A stretch of 64,000 nt of DNA from Burkholderiales bacterium (GCA_035259205.1 DATFWO010000036.1:11018-75017), one strand, 5' to 3'; shown: positions 13,020-62,446, counted from the first letter of the stretch. Numbers and translations are program-made. The notes: a model not told the origin generated them from the sequence alone.

Positions 13020-13054
13020 AGGATGAAGGAGGAGGGATGAGGGATGAGGGATCA
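13020..13054 (+). repeat. heptamer array, family A (GGGATGA-like), 5 units
   Basis: AGGATGA AGGAGGA GGGATGA GGGATGA GGGATCA, in the divergent spacer upstream of the locus-1 selenoprotein candidate. Confidence 0.85.
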
Positions 13055-13085
13055 CGAGAAATGGTAGAGTGGACCGAAAGCTGGT

Positions 13086-13095
13086 TAGAACCTAG
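13086..13095 (+). repeat. TAGAACC-TAG heptamer doublet (family J)
   Basis: TAGAACCTAG immediately followed by the GGAG of the locus-1 ribosome-binding site. Confidence 0.6.
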
Positions 13096-13105
13096 GAGCA
13101 GATAG

Positions 13106-14713
13106 ATGGCCGACAGCATCCTGGCATACGATCCGGTGGCACCGGCGCACGGCGAGGTGCGGCATTCACGCCGCGCGCTCGACGGGCTCGCCGGAAAAGT
13201 CGTCGGATTCATCGACAACGCCAAGCCCAATTTCAACTACCTCGCGGACGATCTGGCGGAGCTCTTGATCGGGAAGTACGGTGTCGCAGGCGTGGTCCGG
13301 CACCGTAAGCGCGGCCAGGTGCCGGCCGGTGACGCGGTGATCCGCGAGCTCGCCGAGCAGTGCGACGCGGTCATCACCGGATCGGGTGACTGAGGGTCCT
13401 GCACGTCGTGGAGTATCCACGACAGCGTAGAGGCGGCGAAGCACGAGCTTGCCGCGGTGACCGTCTGCTCGACCGCGTTCACCCAGCTCGGCCACGCGCA
13501 GGCGAAAAGCCTGGGCTATCCCGACCTGCCGATCGCAGTCATTCCGCATCCCTTCGGCAACCGCATGCGCGATGAAGTGCGGCGTCTCGCCGCAGAGTGC
13601 GTCGACAATATTGCTCAGTTGATCTGCGGTGCGGGGGGATCAACCTCGCAGCCGGTCGTGCGCGCCCCCGCCGCAGCCCGCGCCGCGCTGGTCGAGATTC
13701 CCGGCGATCTCGACGAGCTCAACCGGTTCGTCCACGAGCGGCGCTGGGGTGACGGGCTGCCGGTCGTGCCTCCCACGCAGGAACGCGTGGCGCGCATGCT
13801 CTCCGCAACCTGCCGGGCGCCCAACGAGATCATCGCGAGCATCGCGCCGGCGTTTGGCGCGGCAACCGTGGAGCGCATCGCGATCAATGCGGTAATGGCG
13901 GGCTGCCATCCGGAATATCTGCCGGTCCTCATCGCCGCCGCGGAAGCGGTGGCCGAGCCGAGGTTCAACCTGGGGAGCATACAAACGACGACTAATCCGG
14001 TGACAGTATGGCTCATCGTCAACGGACCGATTGCGGCAAAGCTCGGCATCAACAGCGGCACCAATTGCCTGGGCCCAGGCAACTGGGCCAATGCGACCTT
14101 GGGGCGCGCGATGCGTCTCGTCCTCCAGAATGTCGGCGGCGCGCTGCCGGGCGACATCGATCGCGCCACCCAGGGGCAGCCCGGCAAGTACACGTTCTGC
14201 TGCGCCGAGAACGAGGAAGCGAGCCCCTGGGAGCCGCTGCATGTGGAGCGCGGCTTCGCACCCGCCTGCAGCACGGTAACCGCCGCGGGCGTGTCCGGCA
14301 CTTTGAACATGAATACGCACGCAAAGGATGCGGGCGACCTGCTGCGGGTGATCGCCGATACGATGACCTACCCGGCCGGCAGCGACTTCACCTTCGGTGG
14401 CGCGCCGTGGCTCGTGCTGTCGCCCGAACACGCGCAAGTACTGGCGCGGGGCGGCCTGAGCAAGTCCGAGGTCAAGCGCCACCTGTGGGAGCAGGCGCGG
14501 CTGCTGGGTAGCCGCCTCTCGGCAAAGGATTTCGCGCGGGTGCAAACCGGCCGCCGTGCCGATCTGGGCGAAATCGGACCGGACACCTTCATCACGATTT
14601 CAGCCGGTCCCGACGACATCAACCTCATCGTCGCGGGCGGCGCCGGCACGCATTCGGTGTATCTGCCGGTCTCGGGACACGTGCGGCCCGTCACGCGGGA
14701 AATTGCGCCATAG
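13106..14713 (+). CDS. candidate selenoprotein: UGSC-type domain fused to a ~350-aa domain of unknown function (in-frame TGA 13391..13393 read as Sec)
   Basis: ORFs 13106..13393 and 13457..14713 share one frame, and TGA 13391 is the only stop across 536 codons. AGGAG lies 7 nt before ATG 13106. There is no ATG between the TGA and GTG 13457. Paralogue of 33536..34072 plus 34137..35171. Confidence 0.7.
13405..13423 (+). promoter_or_regulatory. SECIS-like hairpin 11 nt downstream of TGA 13391
   Basis: GTCGTGGA-GTA-TCCACGAC: perfect 8-bp stem, loop starting GU, 11-nt spacer after UGA. Same geometry as the paralogous site 33758..33776. Confidence 0.6.
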
Positions 14714-14857
14714 CGTCAGCCGACTGAACTTTGGTGCAGGTTCGGCTCGGGCATTTATTCCCTACAATTCCGGTACGCCATGCAATTTGGGTAAAGTACC
14801 CGCGGCGTGCGGCGCCGGGTGGATCGCCGCCGTTCCCGGGAACGTCACAAGAAGGTC

Positions 14858-15514: not shown

Positions 15515-16402
15515 ATGGAACGAAAGAAAGCGAGCGATTTTCCCCCGGAGGTTCTCAAGCTGTTCGACGGTTACGTTCACGGCGCGATTAGCCGCCGCGA
15601 GTTCCTGGACCGCGCGGCAAAATTCGCGGTGGGCGGTTTCACCGCCGCAGCCATGCTGGAAAGCCTCAAGCCCAACTTCGCGTGGGCACAGCAGGTTGCC
15701 AAGGACGATTCCCGTATCCGGGTCGAGTACCAGACCTACCCGTCGCCCCAGGGCTCGGGAAACATGCGCGGCTACCTGGCGCGGCCTGCAAAATCCGGCG
15801 GCAAATTGCCCGGCATCGTGGTCATCCACGAGAATCGCGGTCTCAATCCGTATATCGAGGACGTCGCGCGGCGCCTCGCGGCGGCGAACTTCGTCGCCTT
15901 CGCGCCTGACGCCCTCACGCCCGTCGGCGGCTACCCGGGCGACGAAGACAAGGCGCGAGACCTGTTCGCCAAGCAGGACGCCGCAAAGAGGACCGAGGAT
16001 CTGGTCACCGGCGCCGAGTTTCTGAAATCGCGCCCGGAAGTGGGCAAGGTCGGCGCCGTGGGTTTCTGCTTCGGCGGCGGTATCGTCAACGTGTTCGCGG
16101 CGCGCATGCCGGACCTGGCAGCGGGGGTGCCCTTCTATGGGCGACAAGTCAGCGCCGAGGAAACCGCAAGGATCAAGGCGCCGCTCCTGATCCATTACGC
16201 CGAGAACGACGAAGGCATCAACAAGGGCTGGCCGGCCTATGAAGCCGCGCTCAAGGCGAACAAGGTCAGGTACGAGATGCACACGTATCCCGGCACCCAG
16301 CACGGCTTCCACAACGACACGACGCCCCGCTACGACGAAGCTGCCGCCAAGCTGGCGTGGCAGCGGACGGTCGATTTCTTCAACAAATACGTGCGTGCCT
16401 GA
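15515..16402 (+). CDS. dienelactone hydrolase family protein (Tat-type signal)
   Basis: Start at ATG 15515 (MERKKASDF...). ISRREFLDRAAKFAVGG, GIVVIHENRGLNPYIEDVARRLA, GAVGFCFGG, GTQHGFHND. Confidence 0.85.
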   Translation: MERKKASDFPPEVLKLFDGYVHGAISRREFLDRAAKFAVGGFTAAAMLESLKPNFAWAQQVAKDDSRIRVEYQTYPSPQGSGNMRGYLARPAKSGGKLPGIVVIHENRGLNPYIEDVARRLAAANFVAFAPDALTPVGGYPGDEDKARDLFAKQDAAKRTEDLVTGAEFLKSRPEVGKVGAVGFCFGGGIVNVFAARMPDLAAGVPFYGRQVSAEETARIKAPLLIHYAENDEGINKGWPAYEAALKANKVRYEMHTYPGTQHGFHNDTTPRYDEAAAKLAWQRTVDFFNKYVRA

Positions 16403-16407
16403 AAGGC

Positions 16408-16431
16408 GAGTGACGAGTGACGGGTGACGGG
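16408..16431 (+). repeat. heptamer array, family B (GAGTGAC/GGGTGAC), 3.4 units
   Basis: GAGTGAC GAGTGAC GGGTGAC GGG, 5 nt after the stop codon 16400..16402. Confidence 0.85.
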
Positions 16432-16536: not shown

Positions 16537-16929
16537 ATGCTCAATCACGATCTGCAACGAGACGAGGGAATACTGGTGTTACGACCCGAAGGCCCGCTCG
16601 AGGCGACCGATTTCGATACGCTGGCCGCGCACGTCGACGCTTACCTCGAGCAGAACGGAACGCTGCACGGCGTGCTGATCGAGGCGAAGGCGTTTCCGGG
16701 CTGGAAGAACTTTGCCGCGCTGCTCGCCCATCTGAAGTTCGTCAAGCGCCATCATCGGAAGATCGAGAAGGTCGCGGTCGTCGCAGACGACGGTTTTGCG
16801 ACCGTCATGCCGCAGATTGCCAGCCATTTCATACACGCGGAACTGCGGCACTTCGATCATGGACACGAAAGCGCCGCATGGGAGTGGCTGAAGGAAAGCA
16901 CCCGCCGGAAAACCCGCACTGCGGCATAG
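16537..16929 (+). CDS. STAS/SpoIIAA-like (DUF3478-type) domain protein
   Basis: 130 aa; ...EGILVLRPEGPLEATDFDTLAAHVDAYL...HGVLIEAKAFPGW...KIEKVAVVAD pattern. Confidence 0.6.
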   Translation: MLNHDLQRDEGILVLRPEGPLEATDFDTLAAHVDAYLEQNGTLHGVLIEAKAFPGWKNFAALLAHLKFVKRHHRKIEKVAVVADDGFATVMPQIASHFIHAELRHFDHGHESAAWEWLKESTRRKTRTAA

Positions 16930-16942
16930 TCGGCCTCGGGCC

Positions 16943-17005
16943 AGAGACTGGAGACTCGGGACCTGGTCCCCAATCCTTGGTCTCAGTCGCCGGTCCCTGG
17001 TCTCT
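16943..17005. repeat. heptamer array, family C (GAGACTN/GGGACCN), 9 units, self-complementary
   Basis: AGAGACT GGAGACT CGGGACC TGGTCCC CAATCCT TGGTCTC AGTCGCC GGTCCCT GGTCTCT. The left and right halves are reverse complements. Fills the gap between convergent genes. Confidence 0.85.
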
Positions 17006-17013
17006 CGTGCTGG

Positions 17014-18453
17014 CTAGATGACGAAGCGGTCGACGAACTGGTTCACCGGCGTAGATTCGAGACGTGCCTGATCCAGGAAAAGATCGAGGATCGCGGCCTG
17101 CTGCCTGGGCGGAAAGCGGCCGGCGAGGTGTTTTCTGAATTTCGCTTCCAGCAGCGGGATGGCTTCGGCGCGGCGGCGCGGGTGCCCGACCGGATATTCG
17201 ACCTCGACTCTGGATGGGCCCGAGCCGTCTCGAAATCGCAATTCGATCGCGTTCGCGCTCGAGCGCTTCTCGGGATCGACGAATTCGCGCGAGTAACGGG
17301 GCTCCTCGACCACGGTCATCTTCTCGCGCAGCCGGTCGATCCGCGGATCGGCGGCAAACTCGTCCTCGAAATCCGACGCCTCGAGCTTGCCGTGGAGGAG
17401 CCCGACGGCGACGACGTACTGGGCGCAGTGGTCGCGGTCCGCCGGATTGTTGAGCGGGCCGTGCTTGTCCATGATCCTCATCAGCTCCTTCTGGCTGTGG
17501 ATCGTGATGGTCTCGATCTCGTCGAGGCGGTCCTTGACTAGTGGATGCAGCCTGAATGCGCACTCCACTGCACTCTGCCCGTGCATGCCCGCGGCAACGA
17601 GCTTGAACTTCACGTTCTCGATCACGTAGCTGCCGTAGGGGCGCTGGAACCGCAGCGGCTGGCCCCGCAGCACGGCGTCGTGGAATCCGTAGGTCTTCAT
17701 TGTCAGCGCCGACGGATAGCCCATCTCGCCCTTGAGCGCCATCAGCGCGAGCCATACGCCGCGGCTCGTGGCGTCTCCCCCCGCCCAGCTCTTGCGCCAG
17801 CCGGTGTTGTTCCCCTGGCGAAAGAGCGTAAGGTGTCCGCCATCGGTCCAGGCGTTGGAAATGGCGTTGACGATCTCTTCGCGGCTGCCGCCGAGCATGC
17901 CGGTCACGACAGCAGTGGACGCGATCCTTACGCCCGTGGTGGTGTCGAAGCCCAGGCGGGTGAGGTCGTTTTCCATCGACAGGATGCCCTGGATCTCGTA
18001 GGCCTTGATCATCGCGGTAAGGACTTCGCGCATGACGAGCGGGGAATCGCCTTCGCTCATGCGCTTGCGGCTCAAGTAGTCGGCCGTGGCAAGCAGGCCG
18101 CCGATATTGTCCGAGGGGTGGCCGCCCTGGGCCGCCGTAAAGCCGTCGCTGAAGTCGAGCCAGCGGATCATCGTGCTGATGTTGAACGCCGCGCTCACGG
18201 GATCGAGCTCGTAGCGAGTGCCGGGCACTTTGACGCCGTTTGGATAGAAAGTCCCCGGCAGTATGGGCCCCAGCAGCTTCGTGCACTCGGGAAAACGCAA
18301 AGCCTCCATGGCGCAGCCGAGCGAATCGAGCAGGCAGTAGCGGGCCATGCGGTAGGCCTCCGTGCTCGCGATCGGATAGTCGTGCACGTAGTCGGCCATC
18401 TCCGTGAGCGCCCGATCGGGCGCCGGACGGACGTTGGAGTCGCGAGCGGACAT
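17014..18453 (-). CDS. prpD: 2-methylcitrate dehydratase PrpD
   Basis: Start at ATG 18453 (MSARDSN...), 479 aa. Near-colinear with the PrpD sequence as I recall it: GHPSDN, MIKAYEIQG, RKSWAGGDATSRGV, GEMGYPSALT, RFQRPYGSYVIENV, GPLNNPADRDHCAQY, ...TPVNQFVDRFVI. Confidence 0.9.
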   Translation of the reverse strand: MSARDSNVRPAPDRALTEMADYVHDYPIASTEAYRMARYCLLDSLGCAMEALRFPECTKLLGPILPGTFYPNGVKVPGTRYELDPVSAAFNISTMIRWLDFSDGFTAAQGGHPSDNIGGLLATADYLSRKRMSEGDSPLVMREVLTAMIKAYEIQGILSMENDLTRLGFDTTTGVRIASTAVVTGMLGGSREEIVNAISNAWTDGGHLTLFRQGNNTGWRKSWAGGDATSRGVWLALMALKGEMGYPSALTMKTYGFHDAVLRGQPLRFQRPYGSYVIENVKFKLVAAGMHGQSAVECAFRLHPLVKDRLDEIETITIHSQKELMRIMDKHGPLNNPADRDHCAQYVVAVGLLHGKLEASDFEDEFAADPRIDRLREKMTVVEEPRYSREFVDPEKRSSANAIELRFRDGSGPSRVEVEYPVGHPRRRAEAIPLLEAKFRKHLAGRFPPRQQAAILDLFLDQARLESTPVNQFVDRFVI

Positions 18454-18612
18454 TGCCTGCTCCTTGAACGTAGGTTGCGGAAGTTTCTCACACCCGCTTG
18501 ACCTCGCGAAAATCGGCTGACTACCATGCACCGAGGGCGGCGGCGGACGTTCCTCCCGGTCCGCGATTGCCGGTTGCCGGACCGTACCATTTTTCCAGGA
18601 TGTCGGGACGTG

Positions 18613-19569
18613 ATGCGACGATTTGCGGTGTCCATGGTCGCGGCCGGGATGCTCGGTCCCGGCTGGGGCGCCGCGCCGGCGCTGTCCTATCCGACCAAAC
18701 CTATTCGCATCGTTACCGCGGAAGCGGGCGCCGCCGGTGATTTCGCAACGCGCGTGCTCGCTCAGGCTTTGTCAGGCACGCTGGGTCAGAACGTCATCGT
18801 CGACAACCGCCCGAGCGGGGCCATCCCCTGCGACGTCGTGGCCAAGGCACCCCCCGACGGCTACACGTTGCTGCACTTCACCAACAGCACCTGGACACTG
18901 CCGCTCATGCAGCGCGCGCCCTACGATCCGGTCAGGGACTTCGCGCCGATCTCGCTGACCGTAAAATCGTTGAGCGTACTGGTGGTGCATCCGTCGCTGC
19001 CGATCAAGTCCGTGCCCGAGCTCATCGCCTACGCCAAAGCGAGACCCGGGGCGCTCAACTACGGCTCCGGCGGCACCGGCGGCGCGGGACATCTGTCGGC
19101 GGAGCTGTTCAAGTCCATGGCCGAAGTGGACATCGTGCGCGTACATTACAAGGGTGGTGGCCCGGCTCTGAACGCGCTGCTCGGCAATCAGGTGCAGCTG
19201 GGGTTCCTATCGGCGCCGTCCGTGATGCCGCATGTGAAATCGGGCAGGTTGAGAGCGCTGGCGGTCAGTGGTCCGCAGCCCTCTTCCCTGTTTCCGGACG
19301 TGCCAACGGTGGCGGCGTCGGGTATTCCCGGCTACGAAGTCGAGCAGCTGATGGGCGTGTTTGCGCCGGCCAAAATACCCGCAAGCCTCGTCGCTCTGCT
19401 GAATCGGGAAATCGTGCAGGTACTGGGCAGAGCCGACGTGAAGGAACGCTACCACAACGCCAGCATGGAAGTCGTCGGCAGCTCGCCCGCGGAGCTTGCC
19501 TTGGCCATGAAGGCCGATATGGCGCGGATGGGCAAGCTCATCAAGGTCGCAGGCATTCGCGCTGATTAG
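18613..19569 (+). CDS. Bug/TctC family substrate-binding protein
   Basis: Start trimmed to ATG 18613 (MRRFAVSMVAAG...). [42 protein letters not shown]. Confidence 0.9.
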   Translation: MRRFAVSMVAAGMLGPGWGAAPALSYPTKPIRIVTAEAGAAGDFATRVLAQALSGTLGQNVIVDNRPSGAIPCDVVAKAPPDGYTLLHFTNSTWTLPLMQRAPYDPVRDFAPISLTVKSLSVLVVHPSLPIKSVPELIAYAKARPGALNYGSGGTGGAGHLSAELFKSMAEVDIVRVHYKGGGPALNALLGNQVQLGFLSAPSVMPHVKSGRLRALAVSGPQPSSLFPDVPTVAASGIPGYEVEQLMGVFAPAKIPASLVALLNREIVQVLGRADVKERYHNASMEVVGSSPAELALAMKADMARMGKLIKVAGIRAD

Positions 19570-19571
19570 GC

Positions 19572-19581
19572 TAGAACCTAT
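19572..19581 (+). repeat. TAGAACC-TAT heptamer doublet (family J)
   Basis: TAGAACCTAT, 2 nt after Bug stop 19567..19569. Confidence 0.55.
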
Positions 19582-19672
19582 CTCAATAGTTCTTTCGACA
19601 TGAGCTTCCAAGTCGATGGAAAAGTTACACTTAGCCTATTTATTTCGACACCCCGGACCGGAGTGAGACATC

Positions 19673-19972
19673 GTGGATTTCGGCAAGCTGGTTGAGCAGC
19701 TCACGAAGGATTGGGAGTGGCTTTCCTTCCTCGCGCGATATTGCGCGGGGAAAAACATCGGCAAGGCTTTCTGCCAGGACGTCAAATGGTGGGCGCTCGG
19801 GGCGGCGGCGCTCGTCATCTTGATCGCTATCTGGTGGATTGGGCGCAAGCTCGCAAAGGCTTATGAGAACTGGAACCACCGCAGGCTCATGGCCAAAATC
19901 GCCGACGACGAGACCATGAAGAATCACGTGTGGTCGGGCCACGACGTTCACACAAGACCGAAGACAAAATAG
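19673..19972 (+). CDS. small hypothetical membrane protein
   Basis: GTG start with GGAG 9 nt upstream. One TM helix (WWALGAAALVILIAIWWIG). Lies in a locally lower-GC spacer. No family recognised. Confidence 0.45.
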   Translation: MDFGKLVEQLTKDWEWLSFLARYCAGKNIGKAFCQDVKWWALGAAALVILIAIWWIGRKLAKAYENWNHRRLMAKIADDETMKNHVWSGHDVHTRPKTK

Positions 19973-20044
19973 GCTGTGAATCGGCTCTAATCCCATTTTG
20001 TGGGAGCCGATGCTTGGCCGGTTGGCACGTGCCTCTCTTCGGCG

Positions 20045-21004
20045 TTACTCAATTCCCGCTTCCTTGATCAGCTTCCCCCACTTGGTGGCCGCGGACTTGA
20101 TGTAGTCGCTGAACTGCTCCGCAGTCAGGTTTCCGGGCTCCAGCGCCTGGGACGCAAAGTTCTTCCTGATATCGGGGCGGGCGAGCGCTTTCCCGATCTC
20201 GCCGTTCAGGCGCGTCACGATCTCGCGCGGCGTCGCCGCCGGCGCGATCAGGCCGAAAAACCCCACGACCTCGAAGCCGGGCAGCCCCGCTTCCGCCACC
20301 GTGGGCACGCCGGGCACGACGGGAATTCGTTGCAAGCCGGTCACGGCGAGCGCCCGCATCTTGCCGGTTTGCACGAAAGTGTTGCATGCCGTCACGTTGC
20401 AGAAACTGATCGGCATGTGCCCGGCGATGACGTCGATGATCGCCGGTGCTTCTCCCTTATACGGCACATGCACGATATTGATCTTGGCCATGTTCTTGAG
20501 CAGCTCGCCCCCCAGGTGCAGCGTCGTGCCGATACCGCCGGAGGCGTAGTTCAACTCGCCCGGCCGCGCGCGCGCGAGTGCGATGAGCTCCTTTACCGAG
20601 CGGACCGGCAGGGCAGGATTGACGGCCAGAATCAACGGGCTCGTCGCGGTCAGCGAGACCGCCGCGAAGTCTTTCACGAGATCGGGATAGGTCTTCTTCT
20701 CGATCATCGCCGAAGTCATCAGCGTCTGCGTCGTCATCATGAGCACGTGGCCGTCAGGGGGACTCTTCGCGACGAGGTCGCCGGCGATCTGGCTGCTTGC
20801 GCCCGGCCGGTTCTCCACGACCACCGATTGCCCGAGGCTTTCTGTCAGCGGCTGCGCTAGGTTGCGCGCGATGATGTCAGTCGCTCCGCCCGGGGAAAAG
20901 CCGACGACCATCCGTACCGGCCTCACAGGATATTTGGCCTGCGCGAACGCGGCGCCCGTGGCCGTGGCCAGCGCAAGGCCGGCTATCCAATGCGCGAGCT
21001 TCAT
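20045..21004 (-). CDS. Bug/TctC family substrate-binding protein
   Basis: Start trimmed to ATG 21004 (MKLAHWIAGLALA...). YPVRPVRMVVGFSPGGATD, VVVENRPGA, HVPYKGEA. Confidence 0.9.
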   Translation of the reverse strand: MKLAHWIAGLALATATGAAFAQAKYPVRPVRMVVGFSPGGATDIIARNLAQPLTESLGQSVVVENRPGASSQIAGDLVAKSPPDGHVLMMTTQTLMTSAMIEKKTYPDLVKDFAAVSLTATSPLILAVNPALPVRSVKELIALARARPGELNYASGGIGTTLHLGGELLKNMAKINIVHVPYKGEAPAIIDVIAGHMPISFCNVTACNTFVQTGKMRALAVTGLQRIPVVPGVPTVAEAGLPGFEVVGFFGLIAPAATPREIVTRLNGEIGKALARPDIRKNFASQALEPGNLTAEQFSDYIKSAATKWGKLIKEAGIE

Positions 21005-21203
21005 TCTATTGTCCCCCCTTGGGACAATCGATGACAGGCCAACGTATCGTGTCGGGCGACGGCGGTCGTCCTGCATTCCGTTCGTGCCAGTGCGATGTGA
21101 CCCCATCATAGGCCCGCCACCCCACGCTCGCAATGTGGATGCCGGCCATAACGGCTTGGCCCAAGCGTAGAATCCGGGCTTCTTATATCTGCGTGTCCTT
21201 GAC

Positions 21204-22208
21204 GTGCTGGTTGACCCGGCTGAATTCCGGATTGCGCGGCATCCGTTCCAGAATTTCCGCTTCTATTGCGCCGCAGCGGTAATCCTGGCCGGAAGTGCGT
21301 CGCCGGTAGCCGGCGCGGCGGGGCAATCCTATCCGGAGAGGCCGGTACGGATCTTCGTGGGCCTCGCAGCAGGCGGCGGCACCGACAGTGTCGCCCGTAT
21401 CATGGCGCAAAAGCTTTCCGACGTATTCGGGCAGTCGTTCGTGGTGGACAACCGTCCCGGCGCCGGCGGCAACGTAGCGGGCGAGTTGACCGCGCGCGCG
21501 GCACCGGATGGCTACACGCTCATAGCAGTCACGCCGACGCATATCATCAATCCCAGCATCTACCGTGACGTGCGCTACGACGCCATCAAGGATTTCGCGC
21601 CGATTGGTCTCATTGCCTACGCTCAGTACTATCTGTCCGCGGCTAACGCGGTGCCCGCGGCGACACTGAAGGACCTCATTGCCCTCGCGAAAACCCAGCG
21701 TCTTATGTACGGCTCGCCCGGCATCGGAGGCACGAATCACCTCGCGGGCGAGCTCTTCAAGAGCATGGCGGGCATCGAGATGGTCCACGTGCCTTACAAG
21801 GGCGGTGCCCCCACGTTGAATGCGCTCATTTCGGGCGAGGTGCACGTTTCGTTTACCAGTGGGGTCGTTCTTCCTCACGCCAAGGCAGGACGACTCAAGA
21901 CGCTCGCCGTGACCGGGGGCAAGCGCACTCCACTGGCACCGGATATTCCGACGGTCGCCGAAGCCGGCCTCCCGGGCTACGAAGTAACGGGGTGGTACGG
22001 ACTTGCCGCGCCGGCCAGAACGCCCAAGGCGATCCTCGAGCATCTCAACGTCACCATGAACCGCGTGCTGCCCGAGTTGCAGGACCGCTACGCTAGTCTC
22101 GCGATGGATCTGGCCGGCGGCACGGCATCCCAGTTCGGCTCGCTCCTCACGAGCGAGCGGGAAAAATGGGCGCGGGTCGTGAGACTGTCGGGCGTCAAGC
22201 CCGAATGA
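21204..22208 (+). CDS. Bug/TctC family substrate-binding protein
   Basis: GTG start (no in-frame ATG in the leader). [45 protein letters not shown]. Confidence 0.85.
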   Translation: MLVDPAEFRIARHPFQNFRFYCAAAVILAGSASPVAGAAGQSYPERPVRIFVGLAAGGGTDSVARIMAQKLSDVFGQSFVVDNRPGAGGNVAGELTARAAPDGYTLIAVTPTHIINPSIYRDVRYDAIKDFAPIGLIAYAQYYLSAANAVPAATLKDLIALAKTQRLMYGSPGIGGTNHLAGELFKSMAGIEMVHVPYKGGAPTLNALISGEVHVSFTSGVVLPHAKAGRLKTLAVTGGKRTPLAPDIPTVAEAGLPGYEVTGWYGLAAPARTPKAILEHLNVTMNRVLPELQDRYASLAMDLAGGTASQFGSLLTSEREKWARVVRLSGVKPE

Positions 22209-22265
22209 TCCGAGTCCGCGGCCACGCTCACTTTTTTTGCGAGGATGTGTCGAATTTAGTATCGA

Positions 22266-23846
22266 TCAGGCAGCGATCGTGCGCCACGTGGCAGCTAGCC
22301 GCTCGGCGCCGCGCAGCGACAGCGCGTAAATGGTATAGGTCGGGTTGGCGGCGCCGCCCGTCGGGAAGATGCCCGGCCCGGCGACGTAGAGATTCGGTAT
22401 CTCGTGGGTCTGCCCGAAGCTGTTGACCACTGAATTGCCGGCGTTCGTCCCCATAATGGTGCCACCCATCAAGTGGACAGTCGGGATATTGCCGCGGCCG
22501 GACCAGGATTCTTTCGCGCCCGCCGCCTTGGCGACCCGCAGTCCCTCCTCGAAATTGGCGTTCCACACACCCTCGACGTCCTTGTCGTAGCTGTGGGTGA
22601 TCCGCGCGCGCGGCATGCCGAACTCGTCCTTGTCGGTCGTCAGCTCGACCCGGTTCTCGACGTTGGGCAATTCCTCGCCGAAAGCGTTGATGCGGGTCAG
22701 GCCGCGCACCGCGCGCTTCATGAACGCCCACAGCTCCGGGCCGAACAAGTCGAGCCGCGCGTTGGCTATGCCGCCCAAGGCGCTTGGCTTCAGCGCGGAG
22801 CCGCAGACGATGAACGTGCTGCCGAACGCGTCCTTGTGGCTGGTTTTGCCGTAGCGGTCATACGACATGTACTGCGCGCCGGTGGTGCCCATGTGGCTTT
22901 CGACGTTCTCGTCGAAGATCGCCCACGTGCCCGACGCGAAATGCGTCATCATGTATTTGCCCACGAGGCCGCTCGAATTCGCGAGCCCCTTCGGGTGCTT
23001 GCCATTGGCCGAGTTAAGCATGATGCGCGGGTTCTGCGCCGCCCACGCCGCGAGCACCACGACGTTTGCCGGCTGGAATCGCTTCTCGCCGTTCCGGTCG
23101 TGATACTCGACACCACTGACGCGGTTGCCGGCGGCGTTGGCCAGCACGCGCGTGACCGTGCTCCACGGTCGCACCTCGGCGCCGGCCTTCCTCGCATCGC
23201 CCAGATAGGTAACAAGAGGATTGGAGAGCGCCCCCGTTGGACAGCCGACGTGGCACCAGCCGTCGTAAATGCATGCCGGCCGCCCTTTGTAGTCGGTCGA
23301 ATTCATGCCGACTGCCGCCGGGACCATGCGAATGCCGACCGCCTCGAAGCCCTTCAGCCAGATGTCGCCGTTACGAAAGGTCTTCATCGGCGGCATCGGA
23401 TACGGCGCGCCCGCCGGCCGCCAGATCTCCTCGGCCTTCGCATCACCCGATACCCCGACGTCGCGCGCGACTTTGTCGTAGTACGGCGCCAGGTCCTGGT
23501 AGGAGATTGGCCAGTCCAGCGCGCGGCCATGCTCGCTCTTGACCTTGAAATCGTTCGGCAGCAGGCGCGGGAAATTTGCGAAGTAATGCAGCGCGGCGCC
23601 GCCGACTCCCCAGCCGGACTGATTGCCATAGGCGACGGGATGCCGGCCCTCGAGAATGAATGGGCCGCCGGCGTGCTTGAGGCGCCGCCCCCAGGCATCC
23701 GAGCTGATGAGATCTCCGGATTTCCAGTCCGGACCCTGTTCCAGAATGATCACCTTCTTCCCGGCTTTCGCCAGCACCGCGGCATAGACCGAGCCCGACG
23801 CGCCCGCGCCGACGATGACCGCATCCACTTTCTCGGTCCTGGCCAT
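22266..23846 (-). CDS. GMC family FAD oxidoreductase (large subunit, pair 2)
   Basis: N-terminal DAVIVGAGASGSVYAAVLAKAGKKVIILEQG Rossmann motif, 526 aa. Starts 1 nt after the upstream small-subunit stop. Confidence 0.85.
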   Translation of the reverse strand: MARTEKVDAVIVGAGASGSVYAAVLAKAGKKVIILEQGPDWKSGDLISSDAWGRRLKHAGGPFILEGRHPVAYGNQSGWGVGGAALHYFANFPRLLPNDFKVKSEHGRALDWPISYQDLAPYYDKVARDVGVSGDAKAEEIWRPAGAPYPMPPMKTFRNGDIWLKGFEAVGIRMVPAAVGMNSTDYKGRPACIYDGWCHVGCPTGALSNPLVTYLGDARKAGAEVRPWSTVTRVLANAAGNRVSGVEYHDRNGEKRFQPANVVVLAAWAAQNPRIMLNSANGKHPKGLANSSGLVGKYMMTHFASGTWAIFDENVESHMGTTGAQYMSYDRYGKTSHKDAFGSTFIVCGSALKPSALGGIANARLDLFGPELWAFMKRAVRGLTRINAFGEELPNVENRVELTTDKDEFGMPRARITHSYDKDVEGVWNANFEEGLRVAKAAGAKESWSGRGNIPTVHLMGGTIMGTNAGNSVVNSFGQTHEIPNLYVAGPGIFPTGGAANPTYTIYALSLRGAERLAATWRTIAA

Positions 23847-23847
23847 C

Positions 23848-24408
23848 TCACCATCTCCTCTCGGGTGCGATGTGCGCCATGTAGGGGATGCCGAGAGCCT
23901 CGTACCCTTCCATGGTGCCGAAGACCACGTCGACGGCGTCGCTGCGCGTCACGAAATACGCGAACGGGGCCGGAGGTCCCTGCCACCCTTCGAGCTTGTT
24001 CACGCGCATCTGGTCGACGAACTCGCGCTGCTCGGTCGCGCTGAGCCGTGCGAAGAAGCGCCCGTGGCGCGCTTCGCTCGACTGGTCGATCGCGGCGATC
24101 ACGGCCCGGTAGAAATTCACATAGGGCGGCTTGACGTTGAGGGTGCGCGCCTCGAGCAGCGCCTCCTCCGGCGGCACGGAGAGCTGGTGATCGATGAAGT
24201 GTGAAATTCCCGCCGCGCGCGCGCCGGGAACGAGCGTCTCTCCCAGTGCTTCTATCGTCTCGGCTTCGCCCGCCTTGAGCAGGCGAAACGGCACACCCTG
24301 CGCTCGGGCTTCCCGGGCGGTGAGGAGGACCTGCGCGCCACCGACGGTAAACGCGAGTGCACCGAGCGCCGCGCCCCGCATGAAGTCTCGTCGTTTGATA
24401 CCGTCCAT
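23848..24408 (-). CDS. gluconate 2-dehydrogenase subunit 3-like small subunit (Tat signal), pair 2
   Basis: Start at ATG 24408: MDGIKRRDFMRGAALGALAF (twin-arginine), 186 aa, immediately upstream of the GMC gene. Confidence 0.75.
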   Translation of the reverse strand: MDGIKRRDFMRGAALGALAFTVGGAQVLLTAREARAQGVPFRLLKAGEAETIEALGETLVPGARAAGISHFIDHQLSVPPEEALLEARTLNVKPPYVNFYRAVIAAIDQSSEARHGRFFARLSATEQREFVDQMRVNKLEGWQGPPAPFAYFVTRSDAVDVVFGTMEGYEALGIPYMAHIAPERRW

Positions 24409-24458
24409 GTCGATCCTCCCCGAGGGATGGTTTTTGCTTCCTCCTTCCGCCCTCCTCT

Positions 24459-51289: not shown

Positions 51290-51311
51290 GCCAGGACTTG
51301 AGACTGGGGAC
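51290..51311 (+). repeat. heptamer array, family C, 3 units
   Basis: GCCAGGA CTTGAGA CTGGGGA, directly after stop 51287..51289. Confidence 0.6.
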
Positions 51312-51352
51312 CGCCGCTGGACGATTTACCTGGTGTCGACTCTCCGATAAAA

Positions 51353-51380
51353 AGCATCGACGCGATGGACGCCATGGAAC
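51353..51380 (+). repeat. 9-10-nt periodic array, family I (CGCNATGGA)
   Basis: ...GACGCGATGGACGCCATGGAAC. It is the inverted partner of 51456..51497. Confidence 0.6.
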
Positions 51381-51455: not shown

Positions 51456-51497
51456 ACGCATCGCGTCCATAGCGATCCCATCGCGCCCATTGCGTTG
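51456..51497 (-). repeat. 9-11-nt periodic array, family I inverted, trailing the fahA stop
   Basis: GCATCGCGTCCATAGCGATCCCATCGCGCCCATTGCG. (C)CCAT recurs about every 10 nt. ATGGACGC is shared in inverted form with the left arm. Confidence 0.65.
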
Positions 51498-52829: not shown

Positions 52830-52906
52830 CTTGGGATTTGGAGTTTCGAATTTTGGTATTTGAGATTTGCAATTTGGGATTTGTGATTTGGGATTTGTGA
52901 TTTGGG
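52830..52906 (-). repeat. AT-rich heptamer array, family D (ATTTGNG; CNCAAAT on gene strand), 11 units
   Basis: CTTGGGA TTTGGAG TTTCGAA TTTTGGT ATTTGAG ATTTGCA ATTTGGG ATTTGTG ATTTGGG ATTTGTG ATTTGGG. Ends 14 nt upstream of the fahA ATG. Confidence 0.95.
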
Positions 52907-52939
52907 AAAGTGAACCGGCACCGCGGGACGCCGATTCAA

Positions 52940-52963
52940 TCATCCCTCATCCTTCATCCCTAG
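52940..52963 (-). repeat. heptamer array, family A, 3.4 units overlapping stop 52960..52962
   Basis: TCATCCC TCATCCT TCATCCC TAG. Confidence 0.85.
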
Positions 52964-53885: not shown

Positions 53886-53920
53886 CAAGGATCAAGGCAG
53901 AAGGATGAAGGAGGAAGAAA
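53886..53920 (+). repeat. heptamer array, family F (NAAGGNN), 5 units
   Basis: CAAGGAT CAAGGCA GAAGGAT GAAGGAG GAAGAAA, between the DinB stop and ATG 53880. Confidence 0.8.
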
Positions 53921-54483: not shown

Positions 54484-54624
54484 GGAATCGCAGCCCTGTG
54501 GAATATGGGAAATTTGACGTGCCTGTTTTCATCGGCAGGCGGATTTGAATTCTAGCAGCCTGTCGGAATCCGACGGACTGACAGGCCGCGATGCCGCCCC
54601 CAGCGACGATCGAGGCGGTAGACT

Positions 54625-54987
54625 TTACGCAGGCCAGACCCGGACAGCCAGCACGATCCCAAATACCAGCAGCACTACCGAGATCGCGACCAGAACGCGC
54701 ACCCGCACGCGCAGGATACCGACCGCGTCCACGAGGCGGCTGTTTTGCTCGGCCAGCTCCCTGATGAGCTCGGAGGATGCCGACAGCTCCGTTTTCAGCT
54801 CGGCGACCTGAGCTTCGAGTTGCGTCAGCCGGTCCTCCATGCCTAACGGCTCATCGGCAGTGTCGCCCTGTCGCGGCCTGCTCCGGAGGCCGATCCACAG
54901 TTTTTTAGCCCCTTGGGCGACGACCGGCGCTGCCGCGATCAGATCGACCCAGGGTATCGCTCTGAATACCGTCACCCAGCCCGCCAT
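54625..54987 (-). CDS. hypothetical membrane protein with coiled-coil segment
   Basis: Start at ATG 54987 (MAGWVTVFRAIPW...). LTQLEAQVAELKTELSASSELIRELAEQNSRL followed by a C-terminal TM segment. The rest of the listed ORF is shadow. Confidence 0.4.
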   Translation of the reverse strand: MAGWVTVFRAIPWVDLIAAAPVVAQGAKKLWIGLRSRPRQGDTADEPLGMEDRLTQLEAQVAELKTELSASSELIRELAEQNSRLVDAVGILRVRVRVLVAISVVLLVFGIVLAVRVWPA

Positions 54988-55041
54988 GTGCTCGCCTTTC
55001 GTTCGATAGAGGCGCGATCGATGAAGATTTGACCGCGGCGA

Positions 55042-55839
55042 ATGAAGTATATTGCACTCATGACGCAGACCATGCCGGCGATATTCTTCGGGCACGGCTC
55101 GCCCGTGAATGCCCTTGCCCGCAACCGCTACACCGAAGGCTGGGCCGCGGTCGGCACTGACATTCCACGCCCGCGTGCGATCGTCTCCGTTTCCGCTCAC
55201 TGGTACCGCCCCGGAGTTGCGGTTACCGCGATGCCGAATCCACCGACTATCCACGACTTCGGCGGCTTCCCGCGCGAATTGCATGAATTTCAGTATCCGG
55301 CGCCGGGCGATCCGGTTCTCGCCCGCCGCGTCCAGGTGCTGCTCGCGCCACTGCCGGTCGAACTGGACGACGAGTGGGGCCTCGACCACGGTACGTGGTC
55401 GGTGTTGTGTCACGTCTTCCCGAGTGCCGACATCCCGGTGATACAGCTTTCGATGGATGAAACGCAGCCTCCCACATTTCACTTCGAGCTTGGGCGGAAG
55501 CTCGCGCCGCTGCGCGACGAAGGCATCTTGGTCATCGGCGCGGGGAACATCGTCCACAATCTACGAGCGTGGACGCGAGGCAGCCCCTCGATGGAGCCAT
55601 ACGACTGGGCAGTCCGCTTCGAGCGCAAGGCCCGCGACTTGATGCTGGCCGGCGACGTCGCGCCGTTGATCCGCTACGAGACGCTGGGCCGGGACGCCCT
55701 GCTCTCTGCGCCGACGCCGGACCACTATCTGCCGCTGCTCTATGTTCTCGCCTTGAGGAGAGTCGACGAAAAGATTGCGTTTCCAATCGAAGGTTTCGAC
55801 GGCGGCTCGGTGTCAATGCTGACCGTGCGCGTCGGGTGA
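55042..55839 (+). CDS. ygiD: 4,5-DOPA dioxygenase extradiol (YgiD family)
   Basis: MPAIFFGHGSPVNA, VSAHWY, IHDFGGFP..L..FQYPAPG, WGLDHGTW, PDHYLPLLYV. The true start may be ATG 55060 or 55069. Confidence 0.85.
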   Translation: MKYIALMTQTMPAIFFGHGSPVNALARNRYTEGWAAVGTDIPRPRAIVSVSAHWYRPGVAVTAMPNPPTIHDFGGFPRELHEFQYPAPGDPVLARRVQVLLAPLPVELDDEWGLDHGTWSVLCHVFPSADIPVIQLSMDETQPPTFHFELGRKLAPLRDEGILVIGAGNIVHNLRAWTRGSPSMEPYDWAVRFERKARDLMLAGDVAPLIRYETLGRDALLSAPTPDHYLPLLYVLALRRVDEKIAFPIEGFDGGSVSMLTVRVG

Positions 55840-55896
55840 GTCGCGAGACGCGCCTGTCACGAGTCGCGAGTCACCAGTCACGAGTCGCCGGTCACT
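55838..55896 (-). repeat. heptamer array, B-like (NNNGTGAC/GCGAC on minus strand), about 8 units
   Basis: GAGTCGC GAGACGC GCCTGTC ACGAGTC GCGAGTC ACCAGTC ACGAGTC GCCGGTC. Spans exactly from the ygiD stop (55837..55839) to the receptor stop (55892..55894). Confidence 0.85.
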
Positions 55897-60179: not shown

Positions 60180-60190
60180 TAGAGTACATT

Positions 60191-61135
60191 GTGCCAATGC
60201 GAAACGATTACGAAATCACTCCGCGCTGGGAATTTGTTTGCAGTGTCAGTCGACTGTGGACAGTGCATGTTTTGGTCGATGATGGAAGCCTTCGACACGC
60301 CTTCGGTCCGTTCCACGGCCTTGATGTCGCGATAAGGCACGCGATAACCGAGGGATTCAACCGCCACACCGACAACTGGAGGGTCACAGTTGACGGCCGT
60401 ACGGCGCACGAGCACTCGGGCTGCGCGCGGGTAAATCGTCCGCTGAGCCAGGCTGCCGCATCGGCGCGCTTGGTTCGGCCACCGTCCCTGCCGGATCCAA
60501 AGCCGTTGGCAAATGAGATTCCACTTCAGCAGAAGGCGTCGCGGTCATTCACGCTTGGTCCTCATGCACAACAAACGGCCTCGGCCGAAGCGTTGCCAGT
60601 AGCTCCAGTACGGTCCAAGCCGCCGCGTCCGGTCCAAGGTTCCGCTCGGATCCCGCTTACGGCGATCGTCGCTGGATTCGCCATCGGAGCGGGGGCAGGC
60701 TATTACTCGATATACGGCTACCAGGGGCGAGACGCGTGGCCGAGCGCTTCGAGCCCCGGGGAGTTGGCCCCAGCGACAATTTACGGCACGGGCTCAAAGC
60801 CGGTTCCCGCAGTCGCAGCCACACCTGTCGATCCATCGGTTTCTCCACCTTCATCTGAACGCGCAACCCCGGCTCACAAACCCATCCCGCCGCTACGCTC
60901 TCCGGCACCGACCCAGAACGCCAGGGCGGCACAGGCTGTGCCCAAAGCTCGCCAGGCACCGGTCAAGTCCGCGTCAATCGCCTCGGTTGCGGAGATGCAC
61001 CGCGAGTTGGACGTTTGCCGCCAGCAGAGCTTCTTTCCGCGCGTCGTGTGCTCGGAAAAAGTGCGGTGGAAGTACTGTGCGCCCAATCGCTGGAACACCA
61101 TTCCCGAATGCGCCGCCGACGTCTCTCCACTTTGA
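60191..61135 (+). CDS. hypothetical membrane protein, Pro/Ala-rich with C-terminal 4-Cys motif
   Basis: GTG start 11 nt after the regulator stop. Central TM (IPLTAIVAGFAIGAGAGYY), a P/A/S-rich linker, and C-terminal CRQQSFFPRVVCSEKVRWKYCAPNRWNTIPEC. Confidence 0.5.
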   Translation: MPMRNDYEITPRWEFVCSVSRLWTVHVLVDDGSLRHAFGPFHGLDVAIRHAITEGFNRHTDNWRVTVDGRTAHEHSGCARVNRPLSQAAASARLVRPPSLPDPKPLANEIPLQQKASRSFTLGPHAQQTASAEALPVAPVRSKPPRPVQGSARIPLTAIVAGFAIGAGAGYYSIYGYQGRDAWPSASSPGELAPATIYGTGSKPVPAVAATPVDPSVSPPSSERATPAHKPIPPLRSPAPTQNARAAQAVPKARQAPVKSASIASVAEMHRELDVCRQQSFFPRVVCSEKVRWKYCAPNRWNTIPECAADVSPL

Positions 61136-61299
61136 GTAGCGGTTGAGTTTAGACCGACCGTTTCTTTCGTAAGGCGGCGATATTCGCTTGGTCTGGGCGC
61201 GCACCATTTATCGAACGAACGACAGGTTTTGGCCCGAACCTTGCCTACCGAGTGATCGGCTCAGTTCGACCCCAAAGCGGACTCAGAGGAATCGAGCTC

Positions 61300-62190
61300 T
61301 CACGCCGCCTGCTCGAGGGTCGAGCCGGTATCCAATGTCGTCGCACGCCGCAAATCGCGCGGTTGCGACTCATCGTGTGGCCGACCGCGATGCATGGTGC
61401 AGCGATTGTCCCAGATGACCACATCGCCGACCCGCCAGCGATGGCTGTAGACGAACTGGTTCTGCGTCGCGTGCGCCGTCAGATCCCACAGCAGCAGACG
61501 CCCGTCGGCCACCGGCCAGCCCAGGATGTGCGATGCATGCGCAGAGAGGTAGAGCGTTTTGCGCCGCGAGCCGGGATGCAGCCGCACCAGACGCTGCGGC
61601 GACGGTGGGTATTTCTCGCGTTCGCCAGGTGGGAATTCGGTGAACCCGATCTGGCCGCGCGACCAGAATATGTCGTGCTCCGCAACCAGCCCGTCGATTT
61701 CCGCCTTCAGCGTCTCCGGCAGCGCATCATAGGCGGCACGCATGTCGGCGAATTCGGTCTCCCCGCCACCCAGCACCGATGCCGGAGGCACCGCGACAGC
61801 GTGCAGCATGCCAAGCACGACCGGCACCGGCATGTACGACGCATCGGTGTGCCACAGGCGATTGCCCAGGCTGTCCAGCCGACGCCTGTCGTCGCGGGCA
61901 CGGATGCGGTTCTCCTCGTCCAGGTTCGAGATGTCACCGATCTGCGGCAGCTCCAGACGGCGCCTGCCGCCCTGGAGCGCCGCGCGGCCGATTTCCAGCG
62001 GGCCAAATTTAGCAGCGAAATCGCGCAATTGCGTATCGGTCAGGCGCTGATCGTGAAACACCAAGACCGCGTAGCGGTCGATGGCATCCCAGATCGTACG
62101 CACACTGCCGGCATCCGTCGGCTGGCTGAGATCGATACCGTCAACCTCGGCGGCAAACGATGGACGTAACGCTCGCAACTCGACTCCCAT
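61300..62190 (-). CDS. TauD/TfdA family Fe(II)/2-oxoglutarate dioxygenase
   Basis: Start at ATG 62190 preceded by AAGGAGGG. WHTDASY (HxD), ...GDVVIWDNRCTMHRG. Confidence 0.85.
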   Translation of the reverse strand: MGVELRALRPSFAAEVDGIDLSQPTDAGSVRTIWDAIDRYAVLVFHDQRLTDTQLRDFAAKFGPLEIGRAALQGGRRRLELPQIGDISNLDEENRIRARDDRRRLDSLGNRLWHTDASYMPVPVVLGMLHAVAVPPASVLGGGETEFADMRAAYDALPETLKAEIDGLVAEHDIFWSRGQIGFTEFPPGEREKYPPSPQRLVRLHPGSRRKTLYLSAHASHILGWPVADGRLLLWDLTAHATQNQFVYSHRWRVGDVVIWDNRCTMHRGRPHDESQPRDLRRATTLDTGSTLEQAA

Positions 62191-62419
62191 CGTGATCCCT
62201 CCTTGGCTCAGATCATTCCCACCTGCGGCATTTGTCGCGTCCATGATCCGCCAGGGATGGCGGTGCTGCAACCCTAGCGGCAAGGGGCTGCCGCACTGCC
62301 AGTGAGATACGGCGTGGCACAGGCAGTGGCTCTTGGCCGGTTTGAGCCGATTGCCCGCCGGCCGAAACTTACCAAGGAGCGGACATTGCCGTTCAGATCA
62401 AGTTGCGACATACACATAC

Positions 62420-62446
62420 CTCTTCACTGCTTCACCTCTTCACTGC
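62420..62446 (-). repeat. octamer array, family E, overlapping the stop of Bug gene 62440
   Basis: CTCTTCACTGC at 62420 and 62436; TTCAC every 8 nt. The minus strand contains GGTGAAGCAGTGAAGA, identical to a 16-mer in 34094..34132. Confidence 0.85.

Follow-up and report, generated by a model that had tools for sequence, protein, structure and literature searches.

Cyanobacteria have been known since 1990 to carry tandem repeats of heptamers, and ribosomal RNA (rRNA) intervening sequences (IVSs) with an S23p open reading frame (ORF) have been known since the early 1990s. The REP, BIME and REPIN families of enterobacteria and pseudomonads are short extragenic elements that lie after stop codons or in operons and whose inverted doublets form hairpins; REP elements are transcribed, can stabilise the upstream mRNA, have an imperfect palindrome with a GTAG head as their unit and are mobilised by RAYT transposases. 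To our knowledge, neither the cyanobacterial heptamers, nor the Xanthomonas heptamers described in 2015, nor the rRNA IVSs have an established function or origin. The short tandemly repeated repetitive (STRR) heptamers of heterocystous cyanobacteria, reportedly described by Mazel et al. in 1990, were the precedent named in an initial annotation of the DNA studied here, and the analogy is a fair one. This DNA is a stretch of 64,000 nucleotides from a Burkholderiales bacterium (GCA_035259205.1, DATFWO010000036.1:11018-75017; hereafter the window), whose intergenic regions hold short tandem arrays that trail stop codons in a fixed orientation, form hairpin arms in many cases and enclose a gene of the PF05635 family.

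In Xanthomonas campestris and X. axonopodis, 186 and 183 GGGAATC/(GGGANTN)n arrays have been described (Rehm et al. 2015, PMC4692102). They are 89-93% intergenic, with a mean distance of 28 nt to the 5' neighbouring ORF, and in some cases overlap stop codons; the G-rich strand is the coding strand where an array follows an ORF and the non-coding strand where it precedes one (PMC4692102). There are 70-75 convergent inverted pairs, and array length and sequence differ between the two species; for these repeats and for the GGGGAYT repeats of Nostoc the authors favour G-quadruplexes (G4), which the Xanthomonas units form in vitro (PMC4692102). TAACTGA direct repeats have been reported from marine Beggiatoaceae, cyanobacteria and Bacteroidetes (MacGregor 2015, PMC4679880), and 23S rRNA IVSs with an S23p/PF05635 ORF from Leptospira, Coxiella and Xanthomonas (Warrier et al. 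2016, PMC4990558). Because heptamer arrays are described in PMC4692102 and PMC4679880, arrays of this kind are already known, and the statement in the initial annotation that none had been described in a GC-rich proteobacterium is contradicted by the Xanthomonas report. New here are the diversity of units, the paired hairpins and the link to PF05635 and IVSs across phyla. In the literature searched we found neither this link, nor a paper stating a general rule that joins PF05635 genes to tandem arrays, nor a paper on a literal GGGATGA array.

Tandem repeats were searched with Tandem Repeats Finder (TRF) in the window and in 100 dinucleotide shuffles as the null. Intergenic DNA was taken as the 13.5% of the window outside our own gene calls, which counted 61 genes, and the array catalogue was made by reading every intergenic region. 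TRF returned 18 period-7 rows against a mean of 2.3 in the shuffles (maximum 6), and 13 period-14 rows against a mean of 0.48 (maximum 3). Both classes are concentrated in intergenic DNA (14/18 and 11/13, respectively), and no member of the array families was found inside any gene of the window. The curated catalogue holds 29 arrays, each 15-77 nt long, and all of them fall within 13017-62446; tandem arrays make up 1.5% of the bases of the window; a reading of all intergenic regions found no arrays in 1-13000 and 17100-30600. Furthermore, the arrays at 37023-37070 and 37482-37510 are reproduced base for base in JGI 3300010046 and SRR5215813. Because these two independent assemblies match the window exactly at both arrays, the arrays are not assembly artefacts; these two arrays are identical in all three assemblies, the window included.

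The position and strand of these arrays, which are real, are highly non-random. Twenty-one of the 29 contain a stop codon or lie at most 15 nt past one with their G/purine-rich strand in the sense of the gene, where 5000 random placements and strands in the same intergenic intervals gave 6.5 +/- 1.8 (maximum 14). This bears out the initial annotation, which had described intergenic tandem arrays starting at or in stop codons in a fixed orientation. The stops that it listed (16400, 33451, 33536, 34137, 36364, 37038, 38619, 39641, 41906, 43733, 45837, 49326, 51287, 52960, 55837, 55892 and 62440) belong to plausible genes with an array 0-15 nt away or overlapping. The arrays are heavy in this uncultured soil Burkholderiales-like lineage, since a third of the genes in the window (21/61) have a trailing array. 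Four arrays of a 5' type (45746, 49212, 52831 and 53887) precede a start codon at a short distance and have their G-rich strand in antisense, a feature beyond the initial annotation, as are the many arrays that serve as hairpin arms and the pair that encloses a PF05635 gene. One or two arrays depart from this 3'-sense/5'-antisense rule, and divergent starts flank the array at 13017. Six related loci, whose gene calls come from other sources, show 18 sense and 3 antisense cases among the arrays within 20 nt of a 3' end.

Read in the sense of the trailed gene, the window contains about ten unit families. Those with 7-nt units are GGGATGA, GRGTGAC, GRGACTN and GAGGGGT, together with ATTTGGG, which lies upstream of a gene; the others are GTGAAGNN (8 nt), CGCAGATRAA (10 nt), CAGCGTCTCAGATA (14 nt), GCGATGGAC-like units and ATCAGTCACGTKTT (one 14-mer), and an example of an array unit in the window is GAGTGACGGGTGAC x2.5. 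Among the nine families of the initial annotation, A to H are real, and J (TAGAACC) is not a tandem array. The heptamers are non-palindromic, and a GRG core that recurs every 7 nt is common to families A-D. Often the GAG and GGG forms of a unit stand in perfect alternation, which gives a 14-nt period. The two strands differ in coding terms: the G-rich strand has stops in all three frames in 16/29 arrays, and the C-rich strand is stop-free in 24/29.

Many arrays are inverted pairs. Of the seven pairs examined, all but one form a strong hairpin or base-pair between their arms. More specifically, the GRGACTN pair between the convergent stops 16927 and 17014 (16944-16966, plus strand; 16975-17006, minus strand) gives a hairpin at 16927-17016 with a dG of -49 kcal/mol and a z of -5.5. 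The GGGATGA x6.6 array at 33457-33503 (plus), which is in phase with stop 33451, faces GAGGGGT x2 at 33510-33526 (minus), which trails stop 33536, and the region 33451-33538 forms a partial hairpin (dG -33, z -4.8). A pair of CAGCGTCTCAGATA arrays with 14-nt units (43734-43797, plus; 43844-43895, minus), which begins at stop 43731/43733, gives the hairpin 43733-43900 (dG -78, z -7.3). The CGCAGATRAA pair, with one arm trailing stop 49326 (49294-49318, minus) and the other before start 49174 (49212-49247, plus), gives the hairpin 49175-49328 (dG -49, z -3.3), which is followed by U7. The arms of the GCGATGGAC-type pair (51346-51378, plus; 51461-51497, minus, 5 nt past stop 51503) pair with each other, and the arms 37023-37070 and 37482-37510 pair across 430 nt in the minimum free energy (MFE) fold of 37020-37520. 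In contrast, the GAGTCRC/GTGACTS array at 55838-55895 (no strand assigned), which fills the entire 52-nt spacer between the convergent stops 55837 and 55892, does not fold more stably than its shuffles, and neither do single arrays (z about 0). The mutual complementarity of arrays between convergent genes, as claimed initially, is seen at 16944/16975 and partly at 33457/33510 and is not general.

One pair surrounds a gene. The GRGACTA array at 37023-37070 (plus) overlaps stop 37038 and is the 5' arm of the stem, and its complement at 37482-37510 (minus) is the 3' arm and also follows the stop (37517) of a convergent TctC gene. The loop of this GAGACTA hairpin holds the gene at 37118-37489 (plus), which encodes a PF05635 "23S rRNA intervening-sequence protein", a four-helix bundle (Pfam E 3.5e-31), homologous to Xanthomonas XCC0516 (PDB 2GSC, E 2.4e-30). 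The gene has no Shine-Dalgarno sequence and has a conserved leader, TGTAMACC-N~17-CGTT-N8-10-ATG (37041-37120 in the window, with equivalents in L203-L213), which would be compatible with an ECF-sigma-like promoter and a near-leaderless mRNA. As a search pattern the leader was rejected as too degenerate, with 85 matches mostly in coding DNA.

We examined 21 PF05635 loci from three phyla: the window, one contig from the (GGGATGA)4 scan described below (L187), seven contigs with close homologs (L203-L206, L209, L211 and L213) and twelve plasmid loci, eleven cyanobacterial and one from Gemmatirosa. Short tandem arrays adjoin the PF05635 ORF in 21/21, so that arrays and gene are physically tied at every locus examined, and in at least 18/21 they stand inverted on both sides, usually with the purine-rich arm upstream. 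The flanking units vary by locus (GGGTGTA, GGGAGTA, GGTGACA, GGAGGGC, GAGTCAG, GGAGATA, AGGGAAA, GTGACTC, AAAAGCT and 13-21-nt units). In the first 15 loci, arrays cover 34% of the DNA within 200 nt of the PF05635 ORF and 3.5% elsewhere. The inverted-complementarity score of the flanks is 38-101 in 8/9 Burkholderiales-like PF05635 loci, compared with a median of 18 and a 90th percentile of 24 for 79 other genes. One PF05635 gene was found in 603 kb of (GGGATGA)4 contigs and none in 1026 kb of array-poor contigs, numbers that are too small for a statistic of co-occurrence. Published data contain two further cases: GGGAATC repeat #15 in table S2 of Rehm et al. overlaps the annotated start of XCC0516 (PMC4692102), and the Coxiella 23S IVS has 2-3 strain-variable tandem GACAGAT heptamers before the S23p ORF, with the 5' cut of RNase III at the first repeat (PMC4990558).

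Array-flanked PF05635 genes were also seen in CRISPR-cas operons, twice as cas6|IVP|cas4 and once as cas10|IVP|cmr3, in L216 (Anabaena sp. 90 pANA02), L219 (Pseudanabaena pPg_01) and L221 (a Picosynechococcus PCC 7003 plasmid). They look less like genes with a cas function than like insertions in the intergenic spacers, and their presence may explain why 23S_rRNA_IVP has been reported as CRISPR-associated. Other small array-flanked ORFs (L203 1310-1654, L206 924-1277 and others) had no significant Pfam match.

Comparison with relatives indicates that the arrays turn over. Among 80 loci of the thiamine pyrophosphate (TPP)-enzyme gene, arrays occur only in the closest two, L001 and L003 (85% identity), with the units GGGATGA, GAGTGAC/GAGTGTC and CGCAGATTAA as in the window plus new ones. 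At the stop of the TPP-enzyme gene itself, the window has GGGATGA x4.7 (45806-45838, minus), beginning in the TAG stop (45837), and L003 has GTGACGA x5, 11 nt past the stop; in L001 and seven further orthologs inspected there is no array at this stop. At this orthologous site the position is re-used but not the unit, and such differences in unit at orthologous sites indicate fast turnover. In six related loci with independent gene calls, bases in arrays amount to 4-10% in L203, L204, L206, L209 and L211, far above the share in the window, and to 2% in L213. These relatives also have much longer arrays, 150-340 nt in length, whose compound units of 13-21 nt are centred on GTGACG (L206 4777-4947; L209 3932-4122 and 4766-4918; L211 3844-4126; L203 3449-3784). 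In practical terms, C-rich arrays are stop-free and get mis-called as genes: long ones are annotated publicly as protein genes at L203 3433-3801, L211 3593-3976 and probably L204 4375-4440, one example being a 122-aa "SPHHRITT" repeat ORF. An array also lies within a 691-aa double ABC_tran "gene" of L204, which may be two genes fused by the caller.

A scan of metagenome contigs for exact (GGGATGA)4 matched at least 120 contigs with a GC content of 37-70%, for which this range and a few recognisable genes are the only taxonomic pointers. The typical layout is a stop codon, (GGGATGA)~4, a loop of 7-113 nt (median 26), (TCATCCC)~4 and the ribosome-binding site (RBS) and start of the next gene; one example, read directly, is TAA|(GGGATGA)4-18 nt-(TCATCCC)4|GAGG..ATG. 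These loci include 26 convergent pairs and 0 divergent ones, and many further heptamers in the same contigs likewise form inverted pairs. Among 149 (GGGATGA)n arrays with at least three units, 50 have TGA or TAA directly before the first unit, and 98 have exactly four units, the number that the query itself required. In L097, the (GGGATGA)4 hairpin lies immediately upstream of an ORF starting MSRIGKK, which looks rplF-like; the hairpin would then apparently sit in a ribosomal-protein operon, which argues against strong termination.

Taken as a whole, we tentatively favour the reading that the arrays are arms, or surviving half-arms, of IVS-like or REP-like intergenic stem-loops that are probably substrates of RNase III, whose cleavage of them we infer. 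The elements would form a class of small stem-loops with stems of tandem 7-nt units, sometimes of 8, 10 or 14 nt, in the order stop codon, G/purine-rich array, loop, complementary C-rich array and then the RBS of the next gene or a convergent stop. The G-rich arm would carry TGA or TAG in a unit whose length is not a multiple of three and thus close all three frames, and because of this the element could abut or supply a stop without lengthening the protein. Presumably co-transcribed with the gene that it trails, the element would pair its arms, in the transcript of either strand, into a near-perfect duplex of 20-35 bp, the architecture of the 23S rRNA IVSs that RNase III excises; the element at 37023-37510 would, as an rRNA IVS does, bear its PF05635/S23p ORF in the loop. 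Paired elements would most likely be RNase III-processed and/or 3'-end-protecting, REP-like structures, and could in this way affect the fate of the mRNA. They may persist and spread as tolerated, possibly selfish, intergenic passengers, with arms that would be lengthened, renewed and turned over by replication slippage and with PF05635 cassettes that would travel with the array hairpins or lodge in their loops. A possible reason for placing the G-rich arm first is that a C-rich leader, unstructured until its partner arm has been transcribed, would load Rho and is avoided.

A wider version of this proposal, in which array hairpins and the PF05635 (S23p/Avd-like) gene constitute one widespread, unrecognised class of IVS-like elements, is more doubtful. 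ORF-bearing copies would then be autonomous or home to the loops of array hairpins, and ORF-less hairpins and half-arrays would be derivatives or targets. If true, one class would cover the cyanobacterial STRRs, the Xanthomonas GGGAATC repeats, the arrays of the window and the rRNA IVSs. The PF05635 link makes these old questions testable in the tractable X. campestris (XCC0516) and in Nostoc PCC 7120.

Several observations weigh against the stem-loop reading and its extension to PF05635. About 15 of the 29 arrays are without a detectable partner arm; for these, a hairpin cut by RNase III explains nothing directly, and calling them half-elements is an assumption. ORF-less arrays far outnumber ORF-bearing ones, with one PF05635 gene per ~64 kb here, and PF05635 cassettes may simply settle in hairpins that were already there. 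Because the array units vary from one PF05635 locus to the next, there is no conserved terminal repeat as in a classical mobile element, and the metagenome PF05635 loci were selected for close homology (62-75% identity) and are phylogenetically non-independent. In Xanthomonas, RNA-seq showed no regulatory role for the arrays, and no function was found (PMC4692102).

The same lack of function would be expected if the arrays were neutral debris of slippage that survives where it is harmless, with position and strand set by purifying selection rather than by function, an explanation that we regard as unlikely. It holds that a C-rich, unstructured array in the sense strand would load Rho and be polar, that directly after a stop a G-strand full of stops does no harm and that heptamers are perhaps favoured by the polymerase footprint, a proposal found in literature cited by PMC4692102. 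The fast turnover of units, the unstructured single arrays and the perfect 14-nt GAG/GGG periodicity, which looks like recent duplication, all agree with it. However, arbitrary local seeds should yield arbitrary units and no paired arms, whereas a small set of units comes back at numerous unrelated loci and in further genomes (L001, L003, L206, L211, L213), and the (GGGATGA)4 hairpins keep one layout across contigs of 37-70% GC, convergent in 26 pairs and divergent in none. Stop codons within the units might have another role, as a backstop in which a stop-bearing 7-nt unit would close all frames within 21 nt and release read-through or frameshifted ribosomes in a GC-rich genome with rare off-frame stops. 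The 16/29 arrays that close all frames in sense, and almost never in antisense, fit this role, as do the several arrays that contain the gene's own stop and the 50/149 (GGGATGA)n arrays directly after TGA or TAA. Yet no stop is contained in GGGAATC of Xanthomonas or in ATTTGGG, AACTGCA and GAGTGTC of the window or L003, the 5'-type arrays point away from the gene, and three units would suffice where arrays reach 11 and have complementary partners, which makes a backstop improbable. It is similarly improbable that the arrays are terminators or insulators, the paired ones being intrinsic terminators without a U-tract and the C-rich antisense or read-in RNA providing sites for Rho loading. Terminator-like sites in 33-53 kb are not above shuffles (12 vs 14.7), so something else may end transcripts there, and besides the U7 at 49175-49328 there is the ATTTGGG/ATTTGAG x11 array at 52831-52907 (plus; 5'-type), upstream of a minus-strand fumarylacetoacetase gene (start ~52813), whose mRNA would carry a rut-like (CCCAAAT)n of 77 nt with 25 C vs 2 G. 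Against this, most hairpins have no U-tract, hairpins apparently lie within an operon at the rplF-like ORF of L097 and within cas operons, and the GRGTGAC x3.3 array at 38603-38625 (minus), which contains the TctC stop 38619, is directly followed by a canonical intrinsic terminator of its own (38581-38603, minus; 10-bp stem with 8 GC pairs, T-run), as the initial annotation had argued in concluding that the arrays are not simply terminators. The narrower idea of canonical Rho-independent terminators was rejected, as only the 49175-49328 pair has a U-run and single arrays are without a hairpin.

The arrays could also be periodic binding sites. HutP recognises UAG-N4 repeats with a period of 7, and a candidate for such binding would be the PF05635 four-helix bundle, as an Avd-like oligomer, or another ring-shaped RNA-binding protein. 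The GRG core every 7 nt in families A-D and the constant presence of arrays beside PF05635 genes speak for it, as does Avd, which binds nucleic acid and the reverse transcriptase in diversity-generating retroelements (PMC10053308). The units (GGGTGTA, GAGTCAG, AAAAGCT, GGAGATA and others) are too diverse for one sequence-specific binder, and S23p is seemingly not expressed in Coxiella (PMC4990558); we give this explanation a small chance. Least probable of all are G4 elements that would modulate transcription or translation at gene ends from DNA or RNA, as proposed by Rehm et al. (PMC4692102). Besides the G4 formation in vitro, GGGNNNN-type units favour this explanation, as do the four G3 tracts of (GGGATGA)4 and the prevalence of exactly four units, which is biased by the query. 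Only 3/29 arrays of the window have at least four G3 tracts, so that G4 cannot be what all arrays share, leaves most of them unexplained and was rejected as a general explanation. Families A, B and C switch between GAG and GGG, G3 tracts are absent from E, G and H, and duplex formation by paired arms would compete with G4.

The remaining arrays of the catalogue are distributed along the window as follows. An array of about five GGGATGA/AAGGATG units at 13017-13052 (plus), between divergent gene starts, is the sole one not beside a stop. GRGTGAC x3.3 at 16406-16431 (plus), single and unstructured, lies 3 nt past the stop 16400-16402 of a dienelactone-hydrolase gene, and CGCAGATRAA x3 (10-nt unit) at 30673-30702 (minus) lies 10 nt past stop 30713 of a helix-turn-helix (HTH) regulator gene. 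The latter stands at the end of the first of three stretches of 560-810 nt without a confident gene call (29904-30712, 54484-55041 and 60180-60937), which are otherwise array-free. The GGGATGA array at 33457-33503 is one of the three with at least four G3 tracts. ATCAGTCACGTKTT x2.1 (14-nt unit) at 36372-36400 (plus), whose orientation is ambiguous with G about equal to C, lies 5 nt past the TctC stop 36364. Perfect 14-nt periodicity is seen in GGGATGA/AGGATGA x4 at 39601-39630 (minus), 10 nt past stop 39641 of an ABC transporter gene, and in GAGTGAC/GGGTGAC x5 at 41878-41912 (minus), which contains the TctC stop 41906. AAGTGAY x2 at 48173-48187 (minus), a weak array, lies 9 nt past the TctC stop 48197; about three GRGACTN units at 51294-51313 (plus) lie 4 nt past stop 51287; GGGATGA x3 at 52940-52961 (minus) begins in stop 52960; and CAGTGAAG x3 (8-nt unit) at 62422-62446 (minus) contains the TctC stop 62440. 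The other 5'-type arrays are an AAGGATG-type purine array at 53887-53919 (plus), 6 nt before start 53880 of a minus-strand gene, and GTGACGG x4 at 45746-45776 (plus), G-rich in antisense, 3 nt before the start of a minus-strand, frameshifted SRAP gene. This SOS-response-associated peptidase gene (PF02586; 45381-45742, minus) looks frameshifted: one frame gives a match to the C-terminal 54 residues alone, and a second frame has a short ORF that opens at ATG 45742. It is either a pseudogene or the product of a sequencing error.

Finally, about five GTGAAGNN units (8 nt) at 34093-34132 (minus), 4 nt past stop 34137, occupy the spacer preceding a putative UGSC selenoprotein gene. In two UGSC-family (PF24696) genes, 33536-34072 (minus) and 13106-14713 (plus), an in-frame TGA coincides with the U-G-S-C motif (...GVGD*GSCSSGS... 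and ...GSGD*GSCTSWS...). At most ~11 nt past each TGA there is a hairpin, at 33776-33758 (minus) and, as GTCGTGGA-GTA-TCCACGAC, at ~13404-13426. Judged from these motifs, the genes look like selenoproteins with SECIS-like elements, and ORF lists split each in two.

The surrounding genes encode eight TctC/Bug receptors, ABC and MFS transporters, a TonB receptor and ring-cleavage enzymes. Seven of the eight TctC genes have trailing arrays, yet many unrelated genes trail arrays too, so no functional conclusion is drawn from this association. A tRNA/tmRNA scan and an Rfam search of the window at the gathering threshold gave no match, hence the window holds no rRNA, and a Pfam scan of 44 window proteins gave no transposase-like match and no RAYT. 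The GC content is 64%, and the closest relatives of the TPP-enzyme are metagenome-assembled genomes (MAGs) of uncultured Burkholderiales/Betaproteobacteria, at no more than 85% amino-acid identity; a look-up of the identical TPP-enzyme protein gave no record. By its sequence, the host is a GC-rich proteobacterium, as the initial annotation had supposed, of a Burkholderiales-like lineage, as the relatives and the expanded TctC/Bug set support.

Compared with the Xanthomonas arrays (PMC4692102), those of the window share the intergenic bias, the 3'-sense/5'-antisense strand rule, the convergent inverted pairs, the turnover and the GC-rich proteobacterial host. Families A (GGGATGA), C (GGGACTN) and D (GGGATTT) have the GGGNNNN form and B (GRGTGAC) is near to it; C and D fit the (GGGANTN) definition literally, and E, G and H fall outside it. 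In contrast to the one dominant unit of Xanthomonas, the window has about ten families, with 8-, 10- and 14-nt units as well; most of its arrays are without the four G3 tracts of a G4-competent array, and most of its units contain a stop codon, unlike the stop-free GGGAATC (PMC4692102). As with STRRs, there are several heptamer families per genome, tandem and intergenic, and cyanobacterial plasmids show array-flanked PF05635 genes; phylum and units differ, and the stop-codon and strand rule is not in the STRR description as far as checked. TAACTGA resembles the window units as a stop-containing intergenic heptamer in tandem sets of 2-6 that is patchy across phyla, but it lies mostly a few nt upstream of starts and in direct repeats, with one indirect set in 170 (PMC4679880). 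Compared with the simple sequence repeats (SSRs) of phase variation, the arrays stand after stops rather than in ORFs. Like REP elements, they lie right after stops and often form inverted hairpin pairs, with non-palindromic tandem heptamers in place of the REP palindrome. Unlike the 23S IVSs (PMC4990558), the element at 37023-37510 is outside 23S helices 9, 25 and 45 and lies between protein-coding genes, ORFs are lacking from most arrays of the window, and excision by RNase III is here hypothetical; this one element nonetheless shares with those IVSs an inverted-repeat stem with a PF05635 ORF in its loop (PMC4990558).

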